Shown here in pieces: positions 12,811 through 53,474 of a stretch of DNA of 64,000 nucleotides. The position numbers and the translations under genes were made by a program. Location of the stretch: NCBI GenBank assembly GCA_964351845.1, contig CAYGQJ010000013.1:7182-71181 (forward strand), given 5' to 3'. The notes under the pieces are model-generated. The model ran no database searches, was not told the DNA's origin, and worked only from the letters and a program-made list of their open reading frames with translations. The stretch comes from an uncultured Flavobacteriaceae bacterium (lineage in GTDB: Bacteria; Bacteroidota; Bacteroidia; Flavobacteriales; Flavobacteriaceae). Every line of letters begins with the position of its first letter. Position 1 is the first letter of the stretch.

Positions 12811-12860
12811 CGCTTTCACGTAAGTGAAGTTTATACTGAGCCCGTCGAAGTACGAAAGCG
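12811..12860. repeat. Palindrome-A-like hairpin interrupted by a family C element
   Basis: CGCTTTC...GAAAGCG arms enclosing AGTTTATACTGAGCCCGTCGAAGT (12828-12851). Confidence 0.7.
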
Positions 12861-12902
12861 TATAAAGAACCATCCCATTTGGAAATATAACACTTCTAAT
12901 TA

Positions 12903-14291
12903 CTACTGCGCATTAATTTTAATATTGTCTAGCTCATACGTCCCGTCAAAAGTAGCATCACCACTTCCTACGTATTTAAAAGCGATATGAACAGTCCCCT
13001 CGAGACACGACAAATCAATAGTTCCAGAAGCTACCCAATCCTGAAAAAAGGTATCATCAGAAACAATAGTCCCTTCTAGTATGGGGCGCCAATCGGCATC
13101 ATCTATATGAGCTGTATCACCATCCCAATCAGTTGCATAAAGCAAGGTAAGTGTGCTTGCATCAGCAAAACTATTGGAGGTTTCAAAGGCAAGTGTCTCC
13201 ATTTCTTGTGCATTAAAATTAATCGCTGGGGTGATCAACCACGCAATCGTACTATCATCACCAGACGAAAAAGACCCTATCCGCACAGCAGTACCATAAT
13301 TACCCCCTGCATCAAAAGGTTCCCAAATTTCAGACCCTTCTTGGGCAAAGTTGATCCACGCATCATTCAAGGATCCGTTGTCTAAGTTATCGGCAAACAC
13401 AACGCCTTCTCCACTCTCTTCTGCAAGACCACACAAATCACACCGATCTCCTTCTTCAAATAGGACATCCTTTGGATCGTTGATCGCCATATTAAAGACG
13501 TCTCCGAAGAAGTCTTTTGTCAACACCCCTTGCAAAGTCCCCCTCCCTGACGGCAGTGATAATGCTTTAAAATCTGAGAAAGTACTTGTACTCAATATGG
13601 TTCTTGCTCCTGTAGCACAATCTTCCAATACCCGCTCACCATCAAACTGATCTTGTGGCTCTGAAGCATACGTTCTTTGATGATTAATGACTTCATCTAC
13701 ATTAAATTGGACGTTTTCAAGCGAAACAAACAAATTCGTTTTCTCATCAGAAAAATCAGAAAAAGAAATTGGCATCGGAATAATCTCTGCCACCTCATTA
13801 CTTCGTACAATCACCTCATTTTGCATAGAAGGTGGGATTTTTCCAACAGAACTCCCATCGGCAATACCTACCGAAAGAACGCCGTTAGCAATACCAACTG
13901 TAAGACCATCTAACCTAACAAATACTTTTCTTCCTAATTCATAGCTTGTAAATAAAGGATTTACATCGATGAGCACCCTAATCCCAGCCACTGGATTTTC
14001 AGGAAGATCTTGAATAATAAATTCTTCAAAAAAATTACCTCCTTCATCACTAGAGATCACATATCCTTCTATAAAGGTATCCACACCTTCAAATGTGAAT
14101 ATCGCATCTCCATTTGCGACAGCTTGGGCTACCTGTCCAGCAACACTGCTGATGCTTACCGGTTGTCCTTCTATTTCTAACGCTCCAGCATCTAATTCTG
14201 GAACAGAAAAGTCATCATCTTGCACACAAGAAATGAGTGCTGTCAAAACAGCTAACATTATAAATAATCGTAGTAATTTTATGGTTTTCAT
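12903..14291 (-). CDS. DUF5689 domain-containing lipoprotein
   Basis: Lipobox ALISC; IEGYVISSDEGGNFFEEFIIQD...GRKVFVRLDGL is typical of DUF5689; C-terminal beta-sandwich domain. Confidence 0.8.
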   Translation of the reverse strand: MKTIKLLRLFIMLAVLTALISCVQDDDFSVPELDAGALEIEGQPVSISSVAGQVAQAVANGDAIFTFEGVDTFIEGYVISSDEGGNFFEEFIIQDLPENPVAGIRVLIDVNPLFTSYELGRKVFVRLDGLTVGIANGVLSVGIADGSSVGKIPPSMQNEVIVRSNEVAEIIPMPISFSDFSDEKTNLFVSLENVQFNVDEVINHQRTYASEPQDQFDGERVLEDCATGARTILSTSTFSDFKALSLPSGRGTLQGVLTKDFFGDVFNMAINDPKDVLFEEGDRCDLCGLAEESGEGVVFADNLDNGSLNDAWINFAQEGSEIWEPFDAGGNYGTAVRIGSFSSGDDSTIAWLITPAINFNAQEMETLAFETSNSFADASTLTLLYATDWDGDTAHIDDADWRPILEGTIVSDDTFFQDWVASGTIDLSCLEGTVHIAFKYVGSGDATFDGTYELDNIKINAQ

Positions 14292-14327
14292 AAGCGTGTA
14301 TACTTCTATAGTTTCTTGATATTTTGA

Positions 14328-17192
14328 TTAAAAGCGAACGTAAAAATTCAGGAAGTACGTAGTTCCGTTTCCGAAGAAGTACCTAGGTCCAAACACAGGC
14401 CCATTTTCTCTTGCCTGGTCATCGCGCACATTTCTGAAGGTAGCATTACGAGATTGTTCAAAACCTCCCGTAACATACTGCTGATCCAATACATTATTGA
14501 TTGTGGCAAAAAAGCCTAAAAAGTAGTGACGGACTCTCCATGATTTCCCTCCAATAATATTGACTAAGAAATATGCATCAAACTCTTGTTGCTGTAATAA
14601 ACTTTTGCCCACAGTAGCGTCAAAATCATTAATAGGCAATCCATCGCTGTCGGTCACAAAATTGGTAGAACGCGCTAAGTTACTCACGTCTATATACGCA
14701 TTCGAGAGATAATTGGCAGTCACTCCTATATTCCAAAAATCAGGATCTCTATATTCAAACCCTACTTGAAAAGCTCTTTCAGGGCCTCCAGCTACGTGGA
14801 GATTCTCTAAGTTTGTGGTACCATCTCCAAAGCGTAGCGCTCCATCAAAATCATCACTTCGCAAGTATAAATTAGGGGTATTTGTAAACGTGTATTGCCC
14901 TACACTAGCCGACGCTTTTAACTTAAGTGTAGGTAACACTTGGGCTTCAATTCCAAGTTCTACCCCCATATGACGTCTTCCTACGTTTGTGAGAACCTCT
15001 TGTACAAAGGCATTTCCATCATTTCCTAAGCCTCCTAGATCTTCTGTAAAGTAAAATCCAATATCCGTTCCTTTTTCAAAAACTGTGTGATACCCCGTTA
15101 ATCTTGCTTTTACAACCGGAGATCTAAAAATATAGCTTACATCTACAGATTGTAGTTGCTCAGGCACTAACCCTTCTACCACCTCATTGTTTTGACGTGC
15201 GTTTACAAAAGAATTACGGATTGTAGGGGCATTTGTATAATAGCCGCTGTTCACATCAATAATATGTCGTCCTGTTATCTTATACGTCAATCCTGCTTTA
15301 ACGCCGCCTGTCGAAAAATTTAACGCTTCACTAGGTCCAAAAGATCCAACAGCTCCTTCTTGGTTTTGGAAATTTCCATTTTCAAATAATCCATTTCGTT
15401 GGTAACTTGTTTGCGTGATTGTGGTTCCTAAGTAAAAATCTACTTTCCTGTATTTGAATTGCGCTTGCGCGAAAGCCGATACCACATTGGCATCTATCTG
15501 ATAATTGTATTTGTAGCGATCTCCCTCCCCAACAATCCTATTAGGATTTCGCACATCACTTTGCGCATTGTCTGTAGAGATAACTCCTGATGCATCTTCA
15601 GACGCTGCTTCTGTAAAGTTATCTATATCCAAATAGCCTGTAGCCCCAAGTAAATCCTCAATTTCTGCATAATTCTCACTACGCAACCTACGATAACTCA
15701 CATTTCCATGAAGCGTAATATGATCTGTAATCGCAGTATTTACAATACTCGTTGCGCTTAGCTGCGTATCTTCTATCACATCATTTTGAAGAATATACAA
15801 CGCATTTCTGCCTTGCGCTCTTAACGCAGCATTACCCTCGTATAAAGCGTTCCAATGAAACTGTCCGTCGTTAACCAGCTGTTCTTGTGCTAAAAAGGCG
15901 TTTTGGAAGTCGGTTGCTGTTGGATTTTCATCTTGCAAAAAGAAACTTGGTAATAATTGATAATAATCAGGCGAAGGGTTACGAGCACCTCCAGCAAAGA
16001 ATTGCTGTCCGTTAGATTCCACCAATGTGGTTCCGTTCGCATCAATTCGACTATTCTTAATGGTTCCGGTTTGGTAGCCAATATTTGTAAGAATTGTTGT
16101 CTTTTCAGAAAGATCCCAGGTGTGATTTAACATCAAAATAGGCTCTTCTATTTCTCGTATACGCGTGTTGCGTATTTCTCCATTCAGATAGCCCCAAAAA
16201 GGATTGTATTGCCTTCCTTTAAGATCAAAAATCTCCTGTGTTAATGCAGTAGAACGACCCCTTCTATTAGGCGTATAAATCGCGGTAAGATTAAGGCTAT
16301 GCTGCTCATTAAATTTTCTTTCCACAGAGGCGAAAATGGAATTTGCATCATACAACGTACCTTCTACATAGCCTTCATTTCCAAAACGTCTAGAAGCAAG
16401 AAGTGTAAACGCCCACCCACTCGAAAGAAGTCCTGTGCTATAACTCCCCATCACACGCCCTTCATACGATCGATTGGCACCGGCATAAGACACCCGTCCT
16501 CCTTTACGGTATTGCGATGCGCGCATCGTAATATGTGTGACACCCCCTAAACCTCCAAAAGCATATTCATTGGCAGAAAGTCCTGCTGTAAACTCACGAT
16601 TGCGTTGTGCATCATTAAGGCCTCCCCAATTTCCCCACTGGGGACGTCCATTAAATTGCTTGTTCATTTCAATACCATTGATGAGTAGTTTCCCATTGGC
16701 ATTATCAAGACCTCTTGGCCTGAAAAAAGTGGCACTCCAATCAAAAGCCGCGGCACTTAAATACGTATCACGACCCGCAGAGAGCAATCCAGAAATGTTA
16801 AACCCGCCTAAATCATCATCTTCTCCATTGAGATCCGTATCAGATAAAGAAATAAGGCCATTGAGCTGTTGTTCTGCGGTGACATCTACATCAAACGTAA
16901 TGTCTCCTAGATCCAGTATGTTTCCTTCATGAACAACAATAGGAAAGCGTCGCGTCACATAGCCTTCTTTTGAAATCCTAAGAATTTGATCTCCGATAGC
17001 TATATCTTGAAATAAAACAAAGGCGCCTGATGCGTCTGTTTGTGTCGCTTGACTTGTTCCTTCTAGTGCAACATGTACATTGGGTAATTTGTCTGAGGTG
17101 ATTCTGTCAATGACAGTTCCTTTTACGGACGTTTGAGCCATGGCAAGAGGCATGGTCAAAACCAGTAAAAATCTAAAAATAGCGTACTTCAT
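14328..17192 (-). CDS. TonB-dependent receptor with N-terminal carboxypeptidase-regulatory-like domain
   Basis: Signal peptide, VKGTVID...LPNVHV domain, plug FFRPRGLD...INGIEMN, C-terminal YFFGNGTTYFLNFYVRF. Confidence 0.88.
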   Translation of the reverse strand: MKYAIFRFLLVLTMPLAMAQTSVKGTVIDRITSDKLPNVHVALEGTSQATQTDASGAFVLFQDIAIGDQILRISKEGYVTRRFPIVVHEGNILDLGDITFDVDVTAEQQLNGLISLSDTDLNGEDDDLGGFNISGLLSAGRDTYLSAAAFDWSATFFRPRGLDNANGKLLINGIEMNKQFNGRPQWGNWGGLNDAQRNREFTAGLSANEYAFGGLGGVTHITMRASQYRKGGRVSYAGANRSYEGRVMGSYSTGLLSSGWAFTLLASRRFGNEGYVEGTLYDANSIFASVERKFNEQHSLNLTAIYTPNRRGRSTALTQEIFDLKGRQYNPFWGYLNGEIRNTRIREIEEPILMLNHTWDLSEKTTILTNIGYQTGTIKNSRIDANGTTLVESNGQQFFAGGARNPSPDYYQLLPSFFLQDENPTATDFQNAFLAQEQLVNDGQFHWNALYEGNAALRAQGRNALYILQNDVIEDTQLSATSIVNTAITDHITLHGNVSYRRLRSENYAEIEDLLGATGYLDIDNFTEAASEDASGVISTDNAQSDVRNPNRIVGEGDRYKYNYQIDANVVSAFAQAQFKYRKVDFYLGTTITQTSYQRNGLFENGNFQNQEGAVGSFGPSEALNFSTGGVKAGLTYKITGRHIIDVNSGYYTNAPTIRNSFVNARQNNEVVEGLVPEQLQSVDVSYIFRSPVVKARLTGYHTVFEKGTDIGFYFTEDLGGLGNDGNAFVQEVLTNVGRRHMGVELGIEAQVLPTLKLKASASVGQYTFTNTPNLYLRSDDFDGALRFGDGTTNLENLHVAGGPERAFQVGFEYRDPDFWNIGVTANYLSNAYIDVSNLARSTNFVTDSDGLPINDFDATVGKSLLQQQEFDAYFLVNIIGGKSWRVRHYFLGFFATINNVLDQQYVTGGFEQSRNATFRNVRDDQARENGPVFGPRYFFGNGTTYFLNFYVRF

Positions 17193-17320
17193 GAGGGTTT
17201 AGTTAATCATAAATCCCGCATAAGATTTTTACATTACACCCAAATATACTCATTTTCAATGTATTCACTATATTTAGCCAAAAATATCTTAGTTTTTTTC
17301 AAAAAAATGAAATCGCCATA

Positions 17321-18379
17321 ATGAATTTAAAAACGTATCTATTCTTCGTTTTCCTTCTATCTTTTGCTTTCGCGAAAGCGCAAGACCAAAAAACCTACAA
17401 GCCACACACCATCGCTTTTTATAACGTAGAAAATCTTTTTGATACGGAAAATGATCCTATTACATTTGATGATGACCGTACGCCAGACGGAAAAGATCAT
17501 TGGACCGAAGCTATCTATGCAGATAAAATACAGAAAATGGCGCGTGTCATCTCAGAAATAGGCAAAGACATTACAAAAAATGCCCCTGCTATTATTGGAC
17601 TGGCTGAAATAGAAAATAGAAAAACCGTAGAGGCACTTGCTAATGATCCTCAATTACTAGACAAAGAGTATGGAATAGCCCATTTTGACTCCCCAGATCG
17701 AAGAGGAATTGATGTCGCTCTTATGTATCAGAAAGCAATATTTACGCCTATACACATTAGTAAACACGAGCTTATTATTTACACTAATGACGATGCTAAA
17801 AAACGTAAATATACACGCGATCAACTACTGGTTTCGGGTTTATTGGATGGGGATATGATTCATGTGATTGTCAACCACTGGCCTTCGCGTTCTGGTGGAG
17901 AAGCCCGAAGTCGTAAAAAACGTATGGCAGCGGCAGCACTTAATAAAAAAATCATAGATAGCCTTCAAAGTAATGACCCGTATGCAAAAATCATCACCAT
18001 GGGAGATCTTAACGACGACCCGACAAGCCCGAGTGTAAAAAAAGTATTGAAAGCTAAAGGAGATAAAGACAAAATAAAAGATAAGATGCTCTATAATCCT
18101 ATGGAGCCTATGTTTAAAAAAGGGATGGGTACCTTAGCTTATAGAGATGGTTGGAATCTTTTTGATCAAATCTTAATTACAGAACCCTTATTACGTAAAG
18201 AATATAGTTCCTACAGGTATTTTAAAGCGGGTATTTATAACAAAAATTACCTCAACACCCCAAAGGGTCGGTACAAAGGATATCCGTATCGCAGCTTTGC
18301 TAATGGAGGCTACACGGGAGGGTATAGTGATCATTATCCCGTATATATTGTCCTTATCAAAGAAGTAGCAGATAATTAG
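17321..18379 (+). CDS. Secreted endonuclease/exonuclease/phosphatase (EEP) family nuclease
   Basis: IAFYNVENLFDT, GLAEIEN, DRRGIDVAL, VNHWPSR, MGDLND, LFDQI, GYSDHYPV. Confidence 0.9.
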   Translation: MNLKTYLFFVFLLSFAFAKAQDQKTYKPHTIAFYNVENLFDTENDPITFDDDRTPDGKDHWTEAIYADKIQKMARVISEIGKDITKNAPAIIGLAEIENRKTVEALANDPQLLDKEYGIAHFDSPDRRGIDVALMYQKAIFTPIHISKHELIIYTNDDAKKRKYTRDQLLVSGLLDGDMIHVIVNHWPSRSGGEARSRKKRMAAAALNKKIIDSLQSNDPYAKIITMGDLNDDPTSPSVKKVLKAKGDKDKIKDKMLYNPMEPMFKKGMGTLAYRDGWNLFDQILITEPLLRKEYSSYRYFKAGIYNKNYLNTPKGRYKGYPYRSFANGGYTGGYSDHYPVYIVLIKEVADN

Positions 18380-18391
18380 ATTTCTTTTATT

Positions 18392-18452
18392 CGCTCCTGC
18401 CTGCCGGCGAGGCAGGTTTGAGAAATGGTATGCTGAGCCTGTCGAAGTAGCG
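18392..18452. repeat. Degenerate palindrome A carrying a B insert in one arm and a C insert in the other
   Basis: CGCT|CCTGCCTGCCGGCGAGGCAGG|TTTGAGAA|ATGGTATGCTGAGCCTGTCGAAGT|AGCG. Confidence 0.8.
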
Positions 18453-18467
18453 TACCACCAAAAATAA

Positions 18468-18500
18468 AAGAGGGAAGATGTTTTGCATCTTCCCTCTCTT
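18468..18500. terminator. Intrinsic terminator between convergent genes
   Basis: AGAGGGAAGATG-ttttg-CATCTTCCCTCT with A/T-rich flanks. Confidence 0.75.
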
Positions 18501-18520
18501 GTTTTAATTATCTTTATAAG

Positions 18521-18952
18521 TTATTGGAACCACCTATCCCAAGGAATCATCGCTAATACCGCGATCAATGCAAGAGTATAAAATATCGCTAGTTTCTTAA
18601 ACTTAGGGGTGGATAAGCGCTGTTTTTTATGTTTAGAATATCCAATGGTAACTAATACAACAGCTATAATCATTAATGTAGGGTGCTCTACAGCGAGACG
18701 TCTCATACTTCCACCCATGCCATTTTGCCGAATCTCATTGAGTCCACTAGGAGATACAAACCAAAGTACTAATCCTATCAATAATTGAATGTGCATGGTG
18801 ATTAATGTAAAAAGTGCCAAACGCATATCTTTGGCCCCATATTCTTTTTTTCCAAAAAACTTAGTTAGTGAATTAATCGTTGTAGCCACTAGTATAAAAA
18901 GAACTAGGCAAGCCCATACTGCATGCACAAATTTTATTGTATCAAGAAACAT
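18521..18952 (-). CDS. Conserved four-helix membrane protein of unknown function
   Basis: Four hydrophobic segments, HIQLLIG and AVEHPTLMIIAV motifs. Start placed at 18952 (MFLDTIKF) because TATCTTTG lies at 18980-18987. Confidence 0.7.
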   Translation of the reverse strand: MFLDTIKFVHAVWACLVLFILVATTINSLTKFFGKKEYGAKDMRLALFTLITMHIQLLIGLVLWFVSPSGLNEIRQNGMGGSMRRLAVEHPTLMIIAVVLVTIGYSKHKKQRLSTPKFKKLAIFYTLALIAVLAMIPWDRWFQ

Positions 18953-19003
18953 AATGTGTGTGTTTAAATAATGACTCCTCAAAGATAGGGCATTTTAAAC
19001 CAA

Positions 19004-19031
19004 AAAACCGACACTATATAGTGTCGGTTTT
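19004..19031. terminator. Intrinsic terminator after the Oar-like TBDR gene
   Basis: Perfect palindrome AAAACCGACACTATATAGTGTCGGTTTT. Confidence 0.8.
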
Positions 19032-19072
19032 GAAGTTTTCGCTATTGCGAAACTATATACTAAGCTATAGAA

Positions 19073-22529: not shown

Positions 22530-24143
22530 TTATGCTTTTTTATACGAAATTAACAACTGCCTTGTAGACGCATCATGAACAGAGGATTCAACATCGTCAA
22601 AGTCGCTAAGCACTTGTTTAGCAAGCTGTTTACCAAGTTCTACACCCCATTGATCATAACTGTAAATATTCCAAATAACACCTTGTACAAAAATTTTATG
22701 CTCGTACATAGCGACTAAAGCGCCTAAAGTCTTTGGAGAAAGTGTATTTATGAGATAGGTAGTGGTTGGTTTATTTCCTTCAAAAACCTTAAAAGGGGTA
22801 AGCTGTTCTATACGCTTTCGCGAAAGCGAACTCTCCTTTAATTCATCTGTCACCTGAGCTTCAGTCTTACCGTTCATTAAGGCCTCTGTCTGTGCAAAAA
22901 AGTTTGCCATCAATTTATCATGATGATCTACATTGCCATGAAGACTTTTCTTAAACCCGATAAAATCAGCAGGAATCAGTTTTGTTCCTTGGTGGATTAA
23001 CTGGAAAAATGCGTGTTGTGAATTGGTCCCCGGTTCCCCCCATATAATATTCCCTGTTTCGTATGTCACAGGATTTCCATTGCGATCTACACTTTTCCCA
23101 TTACTTTCCATAATCGCTTGCTGTAAATACGCAGGCAATCTATGTAAGTATTGCGTATATGGAATAACGGCTTCACTTTCGGCACCAAAGAAATTATTGT
23201 ACCAAATACTTAATAAAGCGGTAATGACAGGGATGTTTTCGCCGAAAGGCTGTTCTTTAAAATGAACATCCATCTCCTGAGCACCTTTCAACAGCTCTTC
23301 AAAATGATCATATCCTACTGCTAGAGCAATAGAAAGCCCTACAGAACTCCAAAGGGAAAAACGCCCCCCTACCCAATTCCACATAGGAAAAATATTTTCT
23401 GATGCAATTCCGAAATTTTGGACAGCTTCTAGATTGGTAGATACCGCCACAAAATGACTTCCCACAGCTTCTTCTCCCAGCTGATCTACAAACCAAGCGC
23501 GTACCGTAGTAGCATTACTCAGTGTTTCTTGCGTGGTGAACGTTTTTGAAACGATAACAAAAAGTGTCGTCTCAGGATCAAGATCTTTTATGGTTTCCAT
23601 CACATGATCTCCATCTACATTTGAGATAAAGTGTGTGGTTAAATGATTTTTATAATACTGCAATGCCTCTACGACCATCACAGGCCCCAGATCTGATCCT
23701 CCGATACCTATGTTAACAACATCGGTAATCGCTTTTCCGGTAGCACCCGTATGCGCACCATCTATAATACTTTTTGTAAAGGTTTTTATAGCACCACGTA
23801 CGTCAGCAACTTCTTCTTTATGGTAAGCTGTTGTTGAAAAATCTCGTAAAGCAGTATGCATTACAGGACGATCTTCTGTTGCATTTATAGCTTCGCCTCC
23901 ATAATAACTAGCAATAGCTTCTGTAAGACCTACTTCTTCTGCAAGCTCAATGAGAAGTGATTTGGTTTCTTCTGTAATTCTATTTTTACTATAATCTACA
24001 AGAAAGTCCTTCCATTGTATCGTAAATGTTGCGGCTCTACCTTCATCTTTGAAGAGTTCCTTAAGGTGTGTGTCCTTTATGGTATCAAAGTGTGCTTGTA
24101 ATTTCTTCCAAGCATGTGTTTCTGTTGGGTTGATATTCTTCAT
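22530..24143 (-). CDS. pgi: Glucose-6-phosphate isomerase
   Basis: [53 protein letters not shown]. Confidence 0.98.
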
Positions 24144-29081: not shown

Positions 29082-29117
29082 CGCTTTCGCGAACCTGCCT
29101 GACGGCAGGCAGGAGCG
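29082..29117. repeat. Palindrome A split by a 20-nt B insert
   Basis: CGCTTTCGCGAA|CCTGCCTGACGGCAGGCAGG|AGCG. Confidence 0.9.
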
Positions 29118-32740: not shown

Positions 32741-33635
32741 TCAAATCACCATACCCTCCATAGACGTCAATCACGCTGTTGCGTTTTATAAAAAACTAGG
32801 ACTCCTACTCATTGTATACGTGCCTGAGCAATACGCTCGTTTTGAATGCCCCGATGGTGACAGTACGTTTTCTATCCATAAAGTAGACGAATTATCGTCT
32901 GGAGAGGGCGTCATTGTCTATTTTGAAATAGAAGAGCTTGACAAAAAAGTAGCCGAATTACAAGATCTTCACGGAGATACGATTCATTTTGACCTACTTC
33001 CTACAGACCAGTCATGGTTATGGAGAGAAGCCCGACTCAAAGACCCGGACGGGAATCAGCTTATTTTATTCCATGCAGGAGATAACAGGAAGAATCCGCC
33101 TTGGCGAATTAAAAGTGAAACTACAGAAGATTCTCGCCTTCGCGAGAATGAAAGTGAATCTTTTGAAATAGAACGTAAATTTTTACTCACCTCAGATGCT
33201 TTCAAAAAAGAAGCAAAGACCGCAACACGCATTACACAAGGATATCTCAGTATAGCCCCTGAACGCACGGTGCGTATTCGCACAAAAGGAGACAAAGGGT
33301 TTCTCACGATAAAAGGAAAATCAAATGAGAGCGGTACCACGCGTGTTGAAGTGGAGGAAGAGATCGCTTTCGCGAAAGCGGAAACACTTCTCAAACTCTG
33401 CCTTCCCGGGATCATAGATAAAACCCGATACGAAGTTATTATCGGAAAACACACCTGGGAAATCGACGAATTTTACGGAGAAAATGCTGGACTCCTACTC
33501 GCCGAAATAGAACTCTCCCAAGAGAATGAATTTTTTCAAAAACCCTCTTGGATTGGAAAAGAAGTTACTGGAAATAAAAAATACTATAATTCTTATCTTA
33601 GTACACATCCTTTCAAAGGTTGGGACGAAGAATAA
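32730..33635 (+). CDS. VOC family domain fused to a CYTH (triphosphate tunnel metalloenzyme) domain
   Basis: N-terminal MNLNQITIP...WLWREARLKDPDGNQLILF; C-terminal EIERKFL, ITQGYL, RTVRIR, LTIKG, KTRY, WEIDEFYG, LAEIEL, YYNSYL. Confidence 0.85.
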   Translation: MNLNQITIPSIDVNHAVAFYKKLGLLLIVYVPEQYARFECPDGDSTFSIHKVDELSSGEGVIVYFEIEELDKKVAELQDLHGDTIHFDLLPTDQSWLWREARLKDPDGNQLILFHAGDNRKNPPWRIKSETTEDSRLRENESESFEIERKFLLTSDAFKKEAKTATRITQGYLSIAPERTVRIRTKGDKGFLTIKGKSNESGTTRVEVEEEIAFAKAETLLKLCLPGIIDKTRYEVIIGKHTWEIDEFYGENAGLLLAEIELSQENEFFQKPSWIGKEVTGNKKYYNSYLSTHPFKGWDEE

Positions 33636-38361: not shown

Positions 38362-38391
38362 CTTGAATTTATGTTTATTTTTCTTGTTTTT

Positions 38392-38574
38392 ACCCCTTCC
38401 GTCAATAGCGCCGCTCTCGCTTCACTATTGCCACCTTCCCTGCCAGGGGAAGGAGCTCATGAGATAGTTATCTTTTAAACTTGGTGGAAATCTATTTGAT
38501 TTTCACCCCTTTTTAAGGCTCTCCTCCTTGAAAGGGAGGAGTGGCATTCGCCCAAGCGAATGACGAGGTGGGTC
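38392..38574. repeat. Family F hairpin pair (F1 forward 38392-38456, F2 reverse 38515-38574) downstream of DUF559
   Basis: ACCCCTTCCGTC-[hairpin]-GCCACCTTCCC..GGGGAAGGAGC and an inverted relative; repeated at 39017-39201. Confidence 0.88.
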
Positions 38575-38585
38575 AACCATCATCT

Positions 38586-38975
38586 TCATACCTCACATTC
38601 CTCATCTCCCAAAAAATGATCCTCAATATCCTTCAAAACACTCGGTAGCAAATTAAAAACCATCTTATTCTCAAACCGAATTACCGTTAACCCCTTGGAT
38701 GCCAGAAACTGTGTTCGTTTCTCATCTTTTTCTTGAGCCGTTGGATTCATATGAGGTTGCCCGTCTAATTCTATGACTAACTTCTCCGAAGCACAATAAA
38801 AATCAACGATATACTTCCCAACCCCATGCTGTCTTCTAAATTTTCTCCCCGCTAATTTTCGTTCTTTCAAATGATTCCACAAAAACGCCTCCGCTGATGT
38901 CAACCCATTACGCAATGATTTTCTAAAACCTTTCGTGTATTCCGGATCGTGGAGTTTTGGCTTTTTACTTCTCAA
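38586..38975 (-). CDS. DUF559 (Vsr-like) endonuclease domain protein
   Basis: RKSLRNGLTSAEAFLWNHLK..KLAGRKFRRQH.VGKYIVDFYC...KLVIELDG..H...DEKRT.FL...GLTVIRFEN. Confidence 0.92.
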   Translation of the reverse strand: MRSKKPKLHDPEYTKGFRKSLRNGLTSAEAFLWNHLKERKLAGRKFRRQHGVGKYIVDFYCASEKLVIELDGQPHMNPTAQEKDEKRTQFLASKGLTVIRFENKMVFNLLPSVLKDIEDHFLGDEECEV

Positions 38976-39016
38976 AATTGTGTTTTTTGTATTTCCTATT
39001 ATATTCTACTATTTTC

Positions 39017-39201
39017 ACCCCTTCCGTCAATAGTACCGCTCTCGCTCTACTATTGCCACCTTCCCCTGCTAGGGGAAGGAGCACTTACTAACTTTATTTT
39101 TTTTACAAGAGAAGCTATTTGTTTCTATACTTACTTTTTAAAAGCTCCCCTCATTGAAAGGGAGGAGTGGCATTTGCCAAAGGCAAATGACGGGGTGGGT
39201 C
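39017..39201. repeat. Family F hairpin pair (F1 39017-39082, F2 39141-39201) upstream of DUF559
   Basis: Near-identical direct repeat of the two elements at 38392-38574, with stem-preserving changes. Confidence 0.88.
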
Positions 39202-39230
39202 CGCTAGCCACTCTGCTACTTATCTACTCC

Positions 39231-45143: not shown

Positions 45144-45156
45144 TGTTATAAGGCTA

Positions 45157-46779: not shown

Positions 46780-46873
46780 AAAGCAAAACGATTTGCCAAC
46801 ACTGTATTAATTTAATACTAGCATAACAGCCTTATCTATCCTTTTTACCAACTTTACACAAAATAGTATTCTT

Positions 46874-48223
46874 ATGAACCGTACGATCCTCTCTTTTTTA
46901 GTCAGTTTTTTGATTTCTACATCTATTTTCCTGTCATCCGAACAGGCAGGCGCGCAAGCGGACTTTTTACAGTCAGGGCCTATGGTGGGATATTCTGATT
47001 TTCGAGAAGTACTGATTTGGGTACAAACCAAAGCTCCTGCCGATGTGAAAATTGGATATTTCGCTCAAGGCGAAAAGGAACGATTCACACCCACCGTTAC
47101 CGCTACAGCAGCCGAAGATCATATTGTAAAATTATTTCCAAGTGACGTGGCATATGGAACGCAATACACCTATAAATTATACATCAATAATCAACATGTA
47201 AAACGCCCGTATCCTTTAGAATTCCAAACGCAAACCTTATGGCAATATCGCACAGATCCGCCATCATTTACCTTTGCGATTGGATCTTGTTTTTATCGGA
47301 ATGACCCTACAGATGACCGCCCTGGAAAACCGTATGGAGATGTCTACGGAATCTTTGAGAGTATCGTTCAAAAAAGTCCTGATTTTATGGTCTGGCTGGG
47401 GGACAATATTTACCTACGCACCCCCGATTTCCAATCTGAACGTGGCATCCGATATCGGAACCGAGAAGCGCGTGCCACACCAGAATTACAATCTTTATTA
47501 GGAAGTGTACATCACTACGCGATTTGGGATGACCACGATTTTGGCCCCAATGATTCTGATCGGAGTTATGTACATAAAAAAATGACTGAAAAAGCCTTTA
47601 ACGACTATTGGGGGAATCCGAGTACCAATGCCACTGGAGAAGGCGGGATTACGGGACAATTTGTGTGGAATGATGTCGAGTTCTTCTTGATGGATGATCG
47701 CTATCACCGCGCACCTAACCGAAGTCTTGACACTACTAAAGACTACCTTGGAGAAGCGCAACTCAACTGGCTTATAGATGCGCTAACGGCTAGTAAAGCA
47801 TCTTTCAAAATCGTATGTATTGGTGGGCAAACCATCAGTGATGCGGCGGTGTACGAAAACTACGCCACGTATCCAGAAGCCCGCAAGCGTTTATTAGATC
47901 GTATTGCCGCCGAAAAGATAGAAGGCGTTGTCTTTATGAGTGGAGACAGGCATCATACGGAGATCTCTCGTTTAGAACGCCCAAATGCCTATCCGCTGAT
48001 TGATATTACGTGTTCGCCGCTTACTTCGGGCACCCATAAAGCCCGTGATGAAGGAAATACGTTACAAGTAAAAGACAAAACGTATTATGAGCGCAACTTT
48101 GGCATAGTCAACGTTTCTGGAACGTATGGAAAACGTACGCTTCTACTTACCATTTATGACGAAAAAGGGGCAAAAGTATGGGATTATACGATCTCACAAG
48201 AGGAATTGAAGTATCAAAAATAA
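46874..48223 (+). CDS. phoD: PhoD family alkaline phosphatase
   Basis: FAIGSCF, WLGDNIY, IWDDHDF, FFLMDDRYHR, LGEAQLNWL, MSGDRHH. Confidence 0.88.
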   Translation: MNRTILSFLVSFLISTSIFLSSEQAGAQADFLQSGPMVGYSDFREVLIWVQTKAPADVKIGYFAQGEKERFTPTVTATAAEDHIVKLFPSDVAYGTQYTYKLYINNQHVKRPYPLEFQTQTLWQYRTDPPSFTFAIGSCFYRNDPTDDRPGKPYGDVYGIFESIVQKSPDFMVWLGDNIYLRTPDFQSERGIRYRNREARATPELQSLLGSVHHYAIWDDHDFGPNDSDRSYVHKKMTEKAFNDYWGNPSTNATGEGGITGQFVWNDVEFFLMDDRYHRAPNRSLDTTKDYLGEAQLNWLIDALTASKASFKIVCIGGQTISDAAVYENYATYPEARKRLLDRIAAEKIEGVVFMSGDRHHTEISRLERPNAYPLIDITCSPLTSGTHKARDEGNTLQVKDKTYYERNFGIVNVSGTYGKRTLLLTIYDEKGAKVWDYTISQEELKYQK

Positions 48224-48224
48224 A

Positions 48225-48453
48225 GCCGGGGCTTCAGTACAATTTTTAGGATTGCTTTTAGCAATTATAAAAATCACTCAGCCACCTTTGATCCGTTTTT
48301 AATATGTGCTTTCGCGAAAATCACTTAGCCGCCTTATATTTTGTTTTAAAGTCGGCATTTCGATACATTTTGCTTCAATAGAAAAAGAATCAAAGGACAT
48401 TGAGTGATTTCAGAGTTCTGAAAAAGAACTCTGAAATAGTACCGAAATGCCGG
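48225..48453. repeat. X/Y mosaic (BIME/REPIN-like) unit 1
   Basis: X GGGGCTTCAGTAC..ATCACTCAGCCACC (48225-48287), partial A+X (48308-48333), Y GGACATTGAGTGA..GTACCGAAATGCCGG (48395-48453). Confidence 0.88.
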
Positions 48454-48458
48454 GTTCT

Positions 48459-49952
48459 TTACTCCACCACCTCAAAGGCTTGAATCGCGGCATTAGGCTC
48501 CATAATGGTATAGCCTGTCCAAAACGTAGGATCGTATTTTGATAAATAAGTCGCTTCTACGTTTTCATTTTCTGAAGCCGCTTCATAGGCGGTACTTGAA
48601 ATATCTTCTGAGTTAAAAATAACCATCTCATATTTAGACAAAGACGTTCCTTGCATATCGATGTTCAGCGAAAGCTCATTTTGCTTACGACGGCCTTTGA
48701 CAAATTTGTTTTTTTCGATCACTTTTAACGGGCGATCGATGCCAAAATAGTTTCCATTTTCTAACTCCAAATACCGCGGACTATAACTTCCACTGGCATT
48801 TTTAGCAAATAGCATTTTTCCTCTGTAGACATTTTCACCGTACTTAATCCCTAATAACCCAAAGGTAAATAGCGGACGCACATTGTCAAATTCTAAGCGT
48901 ACAATGGCAAAATCATCGATGTTGACAAATGCGGTTCCTTTAAAGTCTTTTTTGCCTTTGGGCGAAAAGTCAATAATATACACTGGCTCCTCATCGATAA
49001 ACGTATAATCTCTGATTTCAAACTCATACCGATTCGATTTTGTGAGGATATCAATCTTAGAATCTTCATTAAAAAAAAGTTGGGTGTACAGTTCGGAAAT
49101 ACGATTTTTAATCTGTTCTTGGAAGTCTTGATTATTGGCATTTTCGACCTCTACCTTTACTTTATTGGCATCTTCATTGGCCGCAGTAATAGAGTCTAAT
49201 TGTACTTTGGTTCCAAAAAGTCCCGACTTAATTTTAAGGTAGGAATTAGGTTTTACATTTTCTTTAAAAATGGTTTCCAGGCGTTCACTGAGTCCGTCGA
49301 CAGAGACATCTTTGGACTTATCATACAGCTCGGCTGCTTTATCTACATATAGCTTATGCTTATTGTAATTCCCATAAAAATCACCGACGGCTTCGCGATA
49401 ATAGGAAGATTCACGCGGGACAAGCGTTGCAATGCTATCAATCAATTCTTTGTCAAGCTCTTCTATTGTTGATTTTTTAAAGGCGAAATCTACTTTTTTC
49501 ATCGCATTAAAATCCGACTGCCTAAAGAAAATTTTCTTTTTAGATAATTCTTGAACATCGTAGTTTTTATACATATTTTCTTTGACTTTCTCAATCACTT
49601 CTTTGGCAGAAAGCGGATTGCTAGAAAGAAAAACACCTTTCAGCTCGAATGATTTTGGCGAAAGCCGCACCAGACTATCTGTAAGGGAGGCTACCCAAAT
49701 TCCTTTACGTTCATACCCCATGGATGAGATATACACAGAGTCTTGTATTTTTTTAAGTTGGTCAGGATTGATGGTAAACATCCCATCTTCATTTGAAATC
49801 ACGCCTTGATTTTCTGAAAGTTCAATGGTCGCAAACGGAATCGGTTCTTGTGTTTTGTCATCAATAAGTCTGGCTGATACGGTTTGTGCGGTCATTCCTG
49901 ATACGAGGAATGCAGACAAGAGCATTAAAATGTATTTGATAAGTGTGGTCAT
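48459..49952 (-). CDS. Secreted protein with carboxypeptidase-like regulatory (D_2) N-terminal domain
   Basis: VSARLIDDKTQEPIPFATI...GVISNEDGMF...ISSMGY; YDPTFWTGYTIMEP C-terminus. Confidence 0.8.
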   Translation of the reverse strand: MTTLIKYILMLLSAFLVSGMTAQTVSARLIDDKTQEPIPFATIELSENQGVISNEDGMFTINPDQLKKIQDSVYISSMGYERKGIWVASLTDSLVRLSPKSFELKGVFLSSNPLSAKEVIEKVKENMYKNYDVQELSKKKIFFRQSDFNAMKKVDFAFKKSTIEELDKELIDSIATLVPRESSYYREAVGDFYGNYNKHKLYVDKAAELYDKSKDVSVDGLSERLETIFKENVKPNSYLKIKSGLFGTKVQLDSITAANEDANKVKVEVENANNQDFQEQIKNRISELYTQLFFNEDSKIDILTKSNRYEFEIRDYTFIDEEPVYIIDFSPKGKKDFKGTAFVNIDDFAIVRLEFDNVRPLFTFGLLGIKYGENVYRGKMLFAKNASGSYSPRYLELENGNYFGIDRPLKVIEKNKFVKGRRKQNELSLNIDMQGTSLSKYEMVIFNSEDISSTAYEAASENENVEATYLSKYDPTFWTGYTIMEPNAAIQAFEVVE

Positions 49953-50045
49953 GTGTGATTGTTTAGTAGTATAGACGCGTCATTTTCACAAAAGGTTGTC
50001 TCGCATCTTTTTTTATGACGATTTTATAGATGGAATGTTACTTAA

Positions 50046-50239
50046 GCCGGGGCTTCGGTACAATTTTTAGGATTGCTTTCAGCAATGATAAAAATCACTC
50101 AGCCGCCTTTGATTTGTTTTTGTTATATGCTTTCGCGAAAGCAAAAAATTACTCAGACGCCTAACATTACAACAAACACAGGACATTGAGTGATTTTAAA
50201 ATCCTGATAAAGGGTTTTGAAATAGTATCGAAATGTCGG
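50046..50239. repeat. X/Y mosaic unit 2 with an embedded palindrome A
   Basis: X 50046-50108, A 50129-50142, Y 50181-50239. Confidence 0.88.
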
Positions 50240-50253
50240 ATCAATAAGAAATA

Positions 50254-50412
50254 TCACTCTTCCTTTTGCTGTGCTTTGATTTTTTCTTTGAGGATTTTTA
50301 TACGGGCTTCATGAGCGTCTTTTTTCTCGCGCTCTTTCTTTTTCTTTTGTGCCATCAGCTTAGAATGCTTGGCTTTATTTTTTGTGTTTTTAGGACTTCC
50401 TGCTTTTGCCAT
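50254..50412 (-). CDS. Small basic protein (52 aa), not in the ORF track
   Basis: MAKAGSPKNTKNKAKHSKLMAQKKKKEREKKDAHEARIKILKEKIKAQQKEE*; TATCTTTG -7 box at 50417-50424. Confidence 0.7.
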   Translation of the reverse strand: MAKAGSPKNTKNKAKHSKLMAQKKKKEREKKDAHEARIKILKEKIKAQQKEE

Positions 50413-50437
50413 AAAGCAAAGATAGTGAAGATTAATT

Positions 50438-50562
50438 GGGGGCTTCGGTACAATTTCCGCTTACGCGAAAATCACTCAGCCGCCTAGCATTGTATCAAGG
50501 AGAGGACATTGAGTAATTTCAAAATCCTGAAAAAGGATTTTGAAATAGTATCGAAATGCCGG
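50438..50562. repeat. X/Y mosaic unit 3
   Basis: X with an A-like core (50438-50485), Y 50504-50562. Confidence 0.88.
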
Positions 50563-50610
50563 CATCATGGGTCCGCTTTAACGCTTTGCTCTCCCTTTTG
50601 GTCGTGAATC

Positions 50611-51213
50611 TCACAAGCTCGCTTTCGCGAAAGCGGTTTGCATCTCCTTAAATGCTTGCACAGGATCAGCTGCATTCCAAACGCCACCTAAGGCACCCAC
50701 GCCTTGAAAGCCTAGTTTGATCGCTTCTGGGGTAGTTTGTGCGTTGATACCGCCCATGCCTGCAATGAATTTTGGGATGTGACGTACATCAAAACCTCTG
50801 CCTTGCATCTCACTTTTGGAAATCGCTGCAAACACCGGACTTAGCAAATGATAGGCAAAATCAACGGACTGTGCGGCGAGGTCTTCAGGTTCGTGGTAGG
50901 AGCTACTGACCGAAAATTCATTGTCGGTGAAAGATTGAACATAGCTCGCCAACTGATCGCCTTGGGCTCTCCATTTACGTTCTTCCAGATGAATTCCTTT
51001 GATGGGAAACTCGGCCGTGAGTTCGTGATGGAAATTATGCGTCATAATATATTGATAATACTGCGGATCTACTTGATCCAAATAGGCACAGTGCGCTTCT
51101 AGCGTTGCCGCTGGTTTTCTAAAATGAAAATACTGCAAGCCCGCTTCAAAGAGTTGATGCAAGGTTTGAATTTCTGTAGCGCTGGTTTGTTCTGGTGATA
51201 TGAGTAGGATCAT
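50611..51213 (-). CDS. Thiamine phosphate synthase (ThiE/TenI) family protein
   Basis: LFEAGLQYFHFRKP, GIHL, SSSYH, LLSPVFAAISK, AGMGGI, GALGGVW; likelier start MILLISP at 51213. Confidence 0.82.
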   Translation of the reverse strand: MILLISPEQTSATEIQTLHQLFEAGLQYFHFRKPAATLEAHCAYLDQVDPQYYQYIMTHNFHHELTAEFPIKGIHLEERKWRAQGDQLASYVQSFTDNEFSVSSSYHEPEDLAAQSVDFAYHLLSPVFAAISKSEMQGRGFDVRHIPKFIAGMGGINAQTTPEAIKLGFQGVGALGGVWNAADPVQAFKEMQTAFAKASL

Positions 51214-51220
51214 AGTTTTT

Positions 51221-51494
51221 CTTTTCATTCCCTTGAATTTACCTACCGACAGGCAGGGATGGGAATCTCATCATAACGTAAAAGTACGGTTTAATCTACG
51301 TATGAGGAATTTGATTGGTTTTATACCGCTTATGATTCTTTTTAATTCCCGTGAAGACGGGAATCTAATTCTTTTTTTGATTACGTTTCAGAGCTTGAGA
51401 TTCCCGTAGTTATTTACTGATAAGCAGCTAGTAAAATAACATGAGATTCCCGCCGGAGTTTATGCTGAGCATAGTCGAAGTGCGGGAATGAAAG
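51221..51494. repeat. Cluster of family D (ATTCCC-N8-GGGAAT) hairpins, two with nested inserts
   Basis: 51227-51266 (with a 20-nt B insert), 51345-51364 (intact), half copy near 51397, 51446-51489 (with a C insert). Confidence 0.85.
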
Positions 51495-51499
51495 TATTA

Positions 51500-51796
51500 C
51501 TAACTAGAAGCAATCACCTGCTTCAACGCTTCTTTCTGTACCACCCCTGACTGTCGCCAGACTTGTTTTCCGTTTTTGAATAAGATCATGGTGGGGACAC
51601 CACGCACTTGATATTTGGTAGCTAAGGGTTGGTTTTTGTCAACGTCTATTTTGACGATTTTAACGGCATCCCCTAGTTCTTCTTTGACTTGTGTGAGGAT
51701 AGGGCCTAAGGTTTTACACGGCCCACACCAAGTCGCATAAAAGTCGACTAAAACAGGCGTTTCTGAGTTGATGATTTGGGAGAAAGAGGACTTCAT
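51500..51796 (-). CDS. trxA: Thioredoxin
   Basis: VLVDFYATWCGPCK, KIDVDKN, VRGVPT. Confidence 0.95.
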   Translation of the reverse strand: MKSSFSQIINSETPVLVDFYATWCGPCKTLGPILTQVKEELGDAVKIVKIDVDKNQPLATKYQVRGVPTMILFKNGKQVWRQSGVVQKEALKQVIASS

Positions 51797-51852
51797 TTTT
51801 ATTATTTACTATAAAGTTACGAAAAAAAGAAGCTATTGACTGAATCAAACGC

Positions 51853-51972
51853 GGGGCTTCGGTACAATTTTTAGGATTGCTTTCAGCAATTATAAAAATC
51901 ACTCAGCCGCCTTGCATTGTAACACAAAAGGACATTGAGTGACTCGCTGCAAGCGAGGTGTATCGAAATGAC
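51853..51972. repeat. X/Y mosaic unit 4
   Basis: X 51853-51912; Y with a short CTCGC-TGCAA-GCGAG core 51930-51972. Confidence 0.85.
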
Positions 51973-52142
51973 TGGCTCTAGTTTTCATGCTTCGAAAAAC
52001 AGGCTGCTGCAAAGTTTCTATATTGAGATCCCGCTATTCAGCGGGATTAGTTCAACTTACAAGGTTGAGTGCGTCTTTTCAGACTTCTCAACATTGAGTT
52101 TCACTAAAAATAGTATATTCAACATCGAAAATTAGAATCTCT

Positions 52143-52427
52143 ATGTCCAAAGAAAAATCTTGGAAACAACTCATTTTAGACCTCGCCAAGGCGATCTCTG
52201 AAAGCGTAACGGGTGCCTCACGAAAAAGAACTTGGCATCAACATGTGGTGCCGTATGAAGACGGTTGGGCAGTGCGCCGTGAAGGGAATAAACGGATTAC
52301 CTCTAAACATCGCAAACAAAGTACAGCCATTACCAAAGCGAAAGTGATCGCCAAAAGAAAGAAAGCGGATGTCATTATCCATCGAGCGAGTGGTGGGATT
52401 CGAGAGCGGATTGGTTATGGGGATTGA
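52143..52427 (+). CDS. DUF2188 domain-containing protein
   Basis: QHVVPYEDGWAVRREGNKR.....KQSTAI..AK.IAK.....V.IH...G.IRER..YG. Confidence 0.88.
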   Translation: MSKEKSWKQLILDLAKAISESVTGASRKRTWHQHVVPYEDGWAVRREGNKRITSKHRKQSTAITKAKVIAKRKKADVIIHRASGGIRERIGYGD

Positions 52428-52527
52428 GATGAGGGTTGTTTTTACGCTATTTTTTTAATGTGCTTCTACTGGGTTAGTCGTTTTTTGAAAGCTTCTTGTT
52501 GTTAGATATAAAAAATTAACTGAGGCT

Positions 52528-52577
52528 AGGCGTTTCTGATTTGATGATTTGGGAGAAAGAGGATTTCATTTTTTATT
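52528..52577 (-). pseudogene. Truncated duplicate of the trxA 5' end
   Basis: About 50-bp near-identical copy of 51755-51803; reads MKSSFSQIIKSETPSLS*. Confidence 0.75.
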
Positions 52578-52669
52578 GAATTTAGGGGGTAAATCTTACA
52601 TCGTGAAGATACACTTTTTTGCAAAGAATAGGCGTACAGGTTTCCGCAAAGGAGTTGCTGTGTAAGTGA

Positions 52670-53098
52670 TTACAGCAATTCTTCTTTACACATCAAACCT
52701 GGCATTTGTATTTTTTCTCCTTTAATAGTCGCAGAAGCGATGATATGCGCACAACTGTCTTTTATTTTCAGAATTTCTACATAGACAACCGTTTCTTTCA
52801 CAGACTCAATATCTACAAATTCTGGATCATTATAGCTAGACACATAATGCAACTCATAACTGCAATCACTCGTCCAGATAATGCTAACAATGACCTCAGA
52901 GACATTTCCATTAATGTCTACAATTTCTCGTTGCTCATCGCCTTGGCGTATAATCAAGGTTTCAAAAGATACATATTCATTCATAGGAACGACAAAGGAG
53001 CCTTCTTTAAAATCGGCGCAGGTCAATGCCTCTTGTGCCTGTAGGGCACTGACGACAAATAGCGTCATACAAAAACTAAAAAGGGTCTTCATTATCAT
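52670..53098 (-). CDS. Secreted hypothetical protein
   Basis: Signal peptide, C.DFKEGSF, I.WTSDCSYEL. Confidence 0.7.
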   Translation of the reverse strand: MIMKTLFSFCMTLFVVSALQAQEALTCADFKEGSFVVPMNEYVSFETLIIRQGDEQREIVDINGNVSEVIVSIIWTSDCSYELHYVSSYNDPEFVDIESVKETVVYVEILKIKDSCAHIIASATIKGEKIQMPGLMCKEELL

Positions 53099-53192
53099 TT
53101 TTTTTGTGAAGATACGAGAATTTGAAACTCTTGTGTCACAACATCGTCAAGTGCAATGACATCTCGTTTTTGTGTATGAGTGACAAAGACAT

Positions 53193-53474
53193 CCGGCATT
53201 TCGGTACAATTTATAAAGTGCTTTCAGCACTTTATAAATCACTCAATGTCCTAGCAGTGTTACAATGTAACAAACACACCCCTTAATCCCCTACTTCGAC
53301 AAGCTCAGCACAGCGTCTTTCTAGAGGGGAAACTCATACTTTAAATGTTTTAAAACTAAATGTAAGGTGGCTGAGTGATTTCGAAGCATGAGAAATAGTA
53401 TCGAAGCCACCGAGTCAAGAACTCAATGTAAGGTGGCTGCCTGTTTTGCTGAAAGCAAAAGGTACCGAAGCCCC
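53193..53474. repeat. Mosaic unit 5: inverted Y, an F hairpin with a C insert, two inverted X copies
   Basis: Y 53193-53251; CCCCT|24 nt|CTTTCTAGAGGGG 53288-53329; X 53365-53410 and 53430-53474. Confidence 0.85.

Follow-up and report, generated by a model that had tools for sequence, protein, structure and literature searches.

Four copies of element C in the window

The stretch of DNA analysed here, which we call the window, is 64 kb long and comes from an uncultured Flavobacteriaceae bacterium (contig CAYGQJ010000013.1). It carries four copies of a repeat of about 24 nucleotides (nt), element C, each set within a hairpin or a palindrome. A search of the window with the pattern CTGAGC-N(2,4)-GTCGAAG returned four matches, at 12836-12850, 18433-18447 and 51465-51480 on the plus strand and at 53294-53308 on the minus strand, compared with 0.00 in 100 dinucleotide-preserving shuffles. 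The window also contains four GTCGAAGT octamers, each of them part of one C copy. The copies are as follows.

12829..12852, plus strand: C copy 1, GTTTA-TA-CTGAGC-CC-GTCGAAG-TA, 24 nt
18426..18449, plus strand: C copy 2, TGGTA-TG-CTGAGC-CT-GTCGAAG-TA, 24 nt
51458..51481, plus strand: C copy 3, GTTTA-TG-CTGAGC-ATA-GTCGAAG-T, 24 nt, with a 3-nt spacer
53293..53316, minus strand: C copy 4, (A)CGCTG-TG-CTGAGC-TT-GTCGAAG-T, 24 nt

These places agree with an earlier note on this DNA, and so does its length of about 24 nt: the insert measures 24 nt at 4/4 window sites and 23-24 nt across the family, where the size is set by a 2- or a 3-nt spacer. The left boundary is, as that note had it, ambiguous by 1-2 nt. 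The orientation of the copies bears no consistent sense relation to the adjacent genes. There is practically no chance that the four copies are a fortuitous resemblance or an assembly artefact, a reading that is already refuted: the shuffles give an expectation of 0, and the C sequence was recovered in an independent Logan contig, in isolate genomes and at hundreds of loci.

The hosts of the four copies, together with two further hairpins of the D kind, are listed here.

12811..12860: host of copy 1, a split A palindrome, consisting of CGCTTTC (12811-12817), 11 nt ACGTAAGTGAA (12818-12828), C, and CGAAAGCG (12853-12860)
18392..18452: host of copy 2, an A palindrome remnant, consisting of CGCT, a 21-nt CCTGCC..GGCAGG hairpin element (18396-18416), TTTGAGAAA, C, and GCG
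51227..51266: D hairpin with another small insert in its loop, a degenerate CCTGCC-type element; the D. ponticola orthologue carries C instead
51345..51364: unoccupied D hairpin, ATTCCCGT-GAAG-ACGGGAAT, reference for the empty state
51446..51489: host of copy 3, a D hairpin, ATTCCCGC-CGGA-(C)-GCGGGAAT, with C at the junction of loop and 3' arm; a dRS3/CGTC-1-like repetitive extragenic palindrome (REP) hairpin
53288..53329: host of copy 4, an F hairpin, CCCCT followed, after C, by CT-TTCT-AGAGGGG, with C within one arm

Cutting out 51458-51481 leaves ATTCCCGC-CGGA-GCGGGAAT, which folds as single-stranded DNA at -9.0 kcal/mol (z -4.5), and cutting out 53293-53316 leaves CCCCTCT-TTCT-AGAGGGG, which folds at -8.2 kcal/mol (z -3.5); excision thus restores the D and F hairpins, as had been claimed. 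The unoccupied D hairpin at 51345-51364 has a counterpart in the Dokdonia locus L103 that reads ATTCCCGC-GAAG-GCGGGAAT, a compensatory change of the stem. The A palindrome is CGCTTTCGCGAAAGCG, and host 1 minus C gives a DNA fold of -6.4 kcal/mol (z -2.8). The A context of copies 1 and 2 stood up to analysis, but the simple picture that the earlier note gave of these two sites did not. At site 1, the 11 nt ACGTAAGTGAA between the left A half and C are unexplained extra sequence. At site 2, one A palindrome carries both C and a second small hairpin element, the 21-nt CCTGCC..GGCAGG element, which as aligned reads CCTGCCTGCCGGCGAGGCAGG; TTTGAGAAA at this site is TTCGCGAAA with 2 changes.

As proposed, a discrete unit, about 24 nt long, sits in unrelated hairpins and palindromes, and these hosts are intact in relatives or upon excision. 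The hosts had also been said to share no sequence. This is not wholly so, since a purine-rich ..GAA, GGA or GAAA lies 1-3 nt 5' of the insert at all four sites. The same purine run (GAA/GGA/GAAA) stands directly 5' of the insert at cyanobacterial sites and resembles the ..CGAAG end of the element. It suggests a short sequence component in targeting.

C is gained and lost between close relatives

By its flanking proteins the window belongs to a Dokdonia-like flavobacterium. We compared it with syntenic loci from three other Dokdonia genomes (21 kb each), with locus L103 and with D. ponticola (L125), whose histidine kinase is the best match to that of the window (92% identity). At site 1, Dokdonia sp. 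GCA_039944475 (L122) has intact CGCTTTCGCGAAAGCG. At site 2, the A palindrome is intact in both L122 and L123, against which the window copy aligns as TGGTATGCTGAGCCTGTCGAAGTA (alignment A1). Intact palindromes at these orthologous sites in L122 confirm the two A-palindrome contexts, and C is absent from the three syntenic Dokdonia loci of 21 kb each. Site 3 has an identical occupied orthologue in Dokdonia sp. L103 and in D. ponticola L125. D. ponticola moreover carries a second D+C copy, in the hairpin orthologous to 51227-51266, and a C doublet that is not present in the window. From the empty A palindromes in L122 and the differences in occupancy between D. ponticola and the window it follows that C turns over on a short time scale, being gained and lost between close relatives.

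In public metagenome contigs, the D+C composite (51441-51493) is multi-copy, with a depth of 177 compared with about 10. Nested copies therefore do not all stand for separate insertions, and some have probably travelled within a larger composite. Site 4 belongs to a segment of 161 nt (53263-53423) which other strains in such contigs do not have. The 161-nt indel around this site was seen there; clean 24-nt excision variants were not.

The comparison bears on the view that C is immobile, a functional hairpin loop (serving as a binding site at the RNA or DNA level, as a terminator module or in the regulation of a nuclease gene) around which the host stems evolve. Such a loop would agree with the site-3 copy, which is 25/25 identical between the window and the L103 species in flanks of ~70% identity. 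Intact palindromes at the empty orthologous sites, and an occupancy that differs between genomes with ~90% identical proteins, make immobility unlikely. In addition, Rfam gave no match to C in the window at gathering score, and E-value scans of 23 loci returned only sub-threshold matches to RF02901, so that no Rfam family beyond these supports a functional RNA.

Anatomy and distribution of the C family

With ACTTCGAC-N(2,4)-GCTCAGYA as the pattern, a search that took a single genome from each species yielded at least 120 loci. Viral contigs were scanned with the 15-nt core alone as selector, which leaves the flanks unselected, and 126 of the matches listed were analysed. Among the matches listed, most hosts are Bacteroidota; Nostocales, Chloroflexota, Alphaproteobacteria, Acidobacteriota, Patescibacteria and others are also represented, and C occurs on viral contigs as well. 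Conservation in these matches reaches beyond the search pattern by 4 nt upstream and 1-4 nt downstream: the four bases 5' of the pattern form a discrete set (CTTG, GTCA, TTTA, CCTG, TGGT, CTCA, CTCG and TTCG), and the base 3' of it is A in 56/72 copies with a 2-nt spacer and in 38/53 with a 3-nt spacer.

In the 126 viral-contig copies listed, the dinucleotides that flank the core (N2 and N2') are base-paired in 85% and 80% of cases, compared with ~48% after shuffling. The pairs comprise all four Watson-Crick types, and a third position does not rise above the control. The unit is a tag of 4-5 nt followed by N2, CTGAGC-(YT or GNA)-GTCGAAG and N2', 23-24 nt in length with a core of 15-16 nt. Judged from its sequence, it could form a continuous hairpin with putative tandem G.A pairs (T-GA-G / C-GA-A).

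Likenesses of the core to hammerhead, T-loop, boxA, SECIS and kink-turn motifs were dropped by eye, as it is without their defining positions; the hammerhead-like CUGA..GAA, read in the same way, has no G8-A9 context.

Spread by an RNA intermediate, in which a small hairpin RNA is reverse-transcribed and inserted, has reportedly been proposed for the small dispersed repeats (SDRs) of cyanobacteria. For C the idea has no direct support, but the constant length of the unit and the lack of target duplications would fit it. Against it, most of the 3-nt spacers have the form G-N-A between a closing C and a closing G (GAA 9, GCA 9, GTA 8 and GGA 6 of 53 listed), and such loops are the mark of unusually stable DNA, not RNA, mini-hairpins. 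Reverse transcriptases are not among the recurrent families of 148 open reading frames (ORFs) that adjoin C, and the window copies are not consistently sense to adjacent genes. We regard this route as very unlikely.

Some copies stand singly, others are paired in inverted doublets that make long hairpins (L012, L025, L036, L046, L100 and others; none within the window), and others follow one another in tandem arrays, in which the units are non-identical and the period is 22-24 nt (L045, L091, L101). C is also nested in the loop of another C (L021, L034, L038), and in Nostocales exact 23-24-nt inserts lie in tandem heptamer arrays (L015, L031, L070, L084, L086). At clean 24-nt inserts, no target-site duplication was seen. 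The non-identity of array neighbours suggests repeated insertion beside an existing end, not slippage. Self-nesting, non-identical tandem arrays and exact inserts in heptamers all argue against an immobile functional loop, for which the covariation of the closing pairs and the intergenic bias described below would otherwise speak.

Tandem arrays of whole or half units were further noted at L256:2302-2407 (a 16-nt TTGTCATGGTGAGC array after a gene of the GIY-YIG nuclease family), L045:3699-3779 and L051:340-440, and in arrays with periods of 22-23 nt the adjoining units differ. A rolling-circle model with template switching at microhomologies was considered and rejected, as the heptamer-array junctions are not in the rotated register that it predicts.

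Copies of C prefer complementary flanks and mostly intergenic positions. Only 28% of them lie inside long open frames, compared with 78% of random positions, and a perfect flanking stem of >=6 bp accompanies 20.5% of 127 copies versus 4.2% of random positions, which makes such stems 5x commoner at C. The earlier note had inferred that targeting is by secondary structure. This gains from the 5x excess of flanking stems, from self-nesting in loops and from the structure-specific nucleases among the relatives of the Slx1-like GIY-YIG family described below, but insertion in the non-hairpin heptamer arrays means that a hairpin is not required. Structural targeting is thus plausible but incomplete.

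Association with a GIY-YIG nuclease gene

When the 148 ORFs adjoining C were compared with Pfam, GIY-YIG was the most recurrent family, with 3 members (PF01541, best E 4.9e-19). By tblastn we located six GIY-YIG genes in C-selected loci, 5/6 of which abut a C copy. The proteins have 84-104 amino acids (aa) and 37-39% mutual identity (alignment A5). They represent a stand-alone GIY-YIG catalytic domain of about 85-110 aa, with profile matches to UPF0213 (1zg2, E 4e-19; 1ywl, 1e-14) and, weakly, to SLX1.

As an unbiased test of this association, 80 metagenome loci were chosen by homology to the GIY-YIG proteins only. A generalised C core lay near the gene upstream in sense orientation in 15/80 loci, downstream in antisense orientation in 12/80 and on both sides in 11/80, with an expectation of 0.006 per search window. 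The half-motif GTCA-NN-[CG]TGA[GA] was found upstream in sense in 44/80, downstream in antisense in 44/80 and on both sides in 36/80 (expected 0.016 per search window). The best inverted matches of the two sides start at (T/C)GTCA and extend through CTGAGC...CGAAG, and their loop length varies. In 11 loci the stop codon of the gene is the TGA of the reversed tag, and an inverted copy extends over the gene's 3' end. Cochleicola gelatinilyticus and Hwangdonia lutea, both isolates, carry a matching layout in their genomes. Inverted repeats therefore bracket the enzyme gene in the manner of terminal inverted repeats (TIRs), both in 36/80 of the protein-selected loci and in isolates. The upstream copy stands 11-70 nt before the GIY-YIG start codon in sense orientation, a position that would also suit an immobile loop regulating the gene; the overlap of the inverted copy with the gene's 3' end does not suit it.

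The symmetry of this arrangement matters for a further alternative, namely that C is a repeat of the REP/REPIN type and that a Y1 (HUH) transposase, either of the RAYT (REP-associated tyrosine transposase) or of the IS200/IS605 kind, moves it on single-stranded DNA. C resembles such repeats in its imperfect palindrome with an unpaired 5' tag, its inverted doublets, its insertion in loops and the lack of target duplication, and one survey reports REPs within palindromes (PMC3733652). However, the most recurrent Pfam families of the 148 ORFs include no Y1 family and do include GIY-YIG, the TIR-like bracketing of the GIY-YIG genes is two-fold symmetric, unlike the asymmetric IS200/IS605, and the tag is not GTAG. 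A Y1 enzyme is, in our judgement, quite unlikely to move C.

Slx1 is a structure-specific endonuclease, and in a phylogenomic survey of 2006 the Slx1-like proteins of bacteria are treated as repair enzymes passed on vertically (PMC1564403). In the searchable literature we found no published link of GIY-YIG nucleases to REPs, to miniature transposable elements with inverted repeats (MITEs) or to TIR repeats, and no earlier account of the C sequence or of the peptides that it would encode.

A small nuclease gene of another family, DUF559, lies in the window at 38586-38975 on the minus strand (Pfam E 1e-32), within 38362-39230, and is flanked by direct repeats of ~170 nt (38387-38556 and 39012-39182; spacing 626 nt). 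It occupies a slot between A2M-like and PBP1C genes where Cochleicola gelatinilyticus (L329) has a GIY-YIG gene and C arrays; one intergenic slot thus holds a small nuclease gene in each of the two genomes, of a different family in each and with repeats on its flanks.

C as the proposed end of a mini-element

On balance, we lean towards the reading that C is the solo terminal hairpin repeat of a widespread mini-element encoding an Slx1-like GIY-YIG nuclease. The complete element would measure about 0.4-0.5 kb and hold a single gene, for a stand-alone Slx1-like (UPF0213) GIY-YIG nuclease, between inverted copies of (T/C)GTCA-NN-CTGAGC-loop-G(T/C)CGAAG-NN'. The unit would also occur solo, as MITE- or REPIN-like inverted doublets, and as tandem or self-nested arrays. 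Acting in trans from elsewhere in the genome, the nuclease may recognise the C hairpin and nick single-stranded or extruded DNA such as hairpin loops, palindrome centres and GAA-type loops; host repair or ligation would then install a copy of the unit without target-site duplication. The four copies in the window would accordingly be solo ends, set in DNA able to become single-stranded or to extrude. This proposal brings together a discrete unit that turns over, closing pairs that covary, a bias towards complementary flanks and the association with GIY-YIG genes.

Several points weigh against it. The window copies have the tags GTTTA, TGGTA and CGCTG, not TGTCA. Neither the 64-kb window nor ~180 kb of Dokdonia DNA holds a GIY-YIG gene, and Pfam detected no transposase and no GIY-YIG domain in 13 window ORFs near the copies. 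A nuclease or transposase gene flanked by C, which the earlier note had suggested looking for elsewhere in the genome, turned up as GIY-YIG in other genomes; what the data establish is a link at the level of the family, not of the source genome. Even among the 80 GIY-YIG loci, ~28/80 are without tag and half-core on either side. With nearest-neighbour DNA parameters the isolated unit finds no stable fold (minimum free energy 0 to -2.3 kcal/mol), and its structure rests on two covarying pairs and the presumed tandem G.A. The inserts in non-hairpin heptamer arrays oppose a strict structural target. No covalent intermediates and no joining chemistry are known for GIY-YIG nucleases, which leaves the pasting of the 24-nt unit unexplained. 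Finally, the hairpin might regulate the nuclease gene, or C might favour such genes, and either could in principle account for the association.

We also put forward, tentatively and with somewhat more doubt than belief, a wider proposal: UPF0213/YhbQ-type GIY-YIG nucleases may largely be the enzyme of pan-bacterial minimal selfish elements that home to hairpin loops and palindrome centres, with SDRs and orphan CGTC/TGTC REPs as their 23-24-nt solo ends, from which many spurious small ORFs and 'small RNAs' (sRNAs) would derive.

For very small dispersed repeats, that is, SDRs and CGTC-type REPs, no mobilising enzyme has been named in the searchable literature since 2008-2013. The reproducible GIY-YIG link makes the enzyme question testable with one 100-aa protein and a 24-nt oligonucleotide. 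Should C indeed terminate a GIY-YIG mini-element, a protein family that is widespread and has no known role would gain a function, and there would be a mobile unit that targets DNA secondary structure. One frequent origin of misannotated sRNAs, spurious ORFs and broken assemblies would be explained as well; LSLSKDE is among the peptides that we take to be encoded by the repeat. For the window, the proposal would account for a foreign 24-nt loop in terminator-like and REP-like hairpins.

Other small repeats and genes in the window

The A palindrome is highly iterated in the window: its 14-mer GCTTTCGCGAAAGC occurs in 15 copies (<=1 mismatch) in the 64 kb, between 15463 and 61097, where 0 are expected. 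Examples lie at 17366-17379, 22814-22827 and 33366-33379; many copies are intragenic, and related Dokdonia loci contain it too. This highly iterated palindrome is the flavobacterial counterpart of cyanobacterial HIP1.

The second tiny hairpin element, CCTGCCTG-NNNN-CAGGCAGG of 20-21 nt, is found at 29094-29113 and 18396-18416 and, in degenerate form, within 51227-51266. It is placed in the A palindrome (between CGCTTTCGCGAA and AGCG), beside C at site 2, and in the loop of a D hairpin. Its behaviour is like that of C; its sequence is unrelated. Between 51227 and 51489, three dRS3-like hairpins of the form ATTCCC-N-GGGAAT are clustered, one empty, one with the CCTGCC-type insert and one with C, and a truncated fourth lies at about 51398-51407.

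MITE-like repeats of 100-230 nt (AAGCCGGGGCTTCGGTACAATTTTTAGGATTGC..AAATCACTCAGCC..) were noted at 48223-48453, 50044-50240, 50432-50562, 51846-51944 and 53188-53264, and C site 4 is beside or inside one of these copies. Site 1 is adjoined by a 681-aa gene with HTH_3, DUF4870 and beta-lactamase domains (10598-12643, minus strand), which is absent at the syntenic position in L122.

Comparison with known systems

C resembles REP/REPIN-RAYT systems in its short imperfect palindrome, whose length falls within the 20-40 nt of REPs, in its unpaired tag, high copy number and inverted doublets that form long hairpins, and in the one small nuclease-type gene flanked by inverted repeats. It differs in that the flanked gene is GIY-YIG (Slx1-like) and not HUH/Y1, in a core that is near-identical across phyla whereas REPs are lineage-specific, and in single 24-nt units that apparently insert alone.

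A relation may also exist with REPs that carry CGTC, TGTC or CCTC tags. The survey by Di Nocera et al. 2013 (PMC3733652) describes these, including Neisseria dRS3, as having 8-9 bp stems, 4-5 nt loops and head-to-head dimers; stems of the CGTC/TGTC kind often begin with AT, hosts are Alphaproteobacteria, Bacteroidetes, Chlorobi and others, and according to the survey there is no dedicated transposase. Many C copies read TGTC-A-NN-core or CCTC-AT-G-core-C-AT. The tag is present in the GTCA/CTCA/NTCG classes and at the ends of GIY-YIG elements but absent from the four window copies. The host D hairpin ATTCCC..GGGAAT resembles dRS3. REPs of this kind have a stem of 8-9 bp with <=1 mismatch, a loop of 4-5 nt and a CCA tail; the filter of the survey would discard the C stem with its two conserved G.A mismatches. 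The C loop, C-YT-GT, has 5 nt, and no CCA tail was seen in C. Compared by description, CGTC/TGTC-tagged REPs may be related to the C family or overlap with it.

With MITEs and their parent insertion sequences (IS), C shares terminal inverted repeats around one enzyme gene, gene-less doublets and solo ends. Unlike with those, no DDE transposase and no target-site duplication were seen, the ends are hairpins with a conserved loop, and the 'transposase' would be a bare catalytic domain of 85-110 aa.

The consensus of RF02901, AaHKsRNA41 (Aggregatibacter sRNA 41), holds GCUGAgCUUGcCGAAGC and an inverse copy in a long hairpin, which corresponds to a C-type doublet. The family is annotated as an sRNA of one genus, however, and our matches reach 18-29 bits compared with a gathering score of 97 bits. 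Sub-threshold matches lie at L025:3890-4048, L046:3338-3462 and L012:5756-5828. The likeness suggests a repeat of the C kind behind the 'sRNA 41' family of Aggregatibacter.

C further resembles the SDRs. Elhai et al. 2008 (Genome Res 18:1484) reportedly described SDR1-8 in Nostoc punctiforme and relatives as repeats of about 21-27 nt, apparently mobile, embedded in tandem heptamers and self-nested. The C unit of 23-24 nt falls within this size range and is likewise dispersed; it occurs in heptamer arrays, in itself, and in the palindrome CGCTTTCGCGAAAGCG much as SDR5 does in HIP1, a highly iterated palindrome in which, according to one report, SDR5 is precisely inserted (PMC4390886). The Nostocales copies CTTGTACTGAGCGNAGTCGAAGTA, in heptamer arrays and self-nested, fit the SDR description; the comparison is by description only, and on this footing the cyanobacterial SDRs are probably of the same family as C. 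SDRs are reported only in Nostocaceae (PMC5861425), whereas C is spread over many phyla, and the searchable literature ties no enzyme to SDRs, whereas the C family is tied to a GIY-YIG gene. Likened by description, element C is a new member, from flavobacteria, of a kind that was known first from cyanobacteria, and its distribution over many phyla and its consistent partner gene appear to be new.

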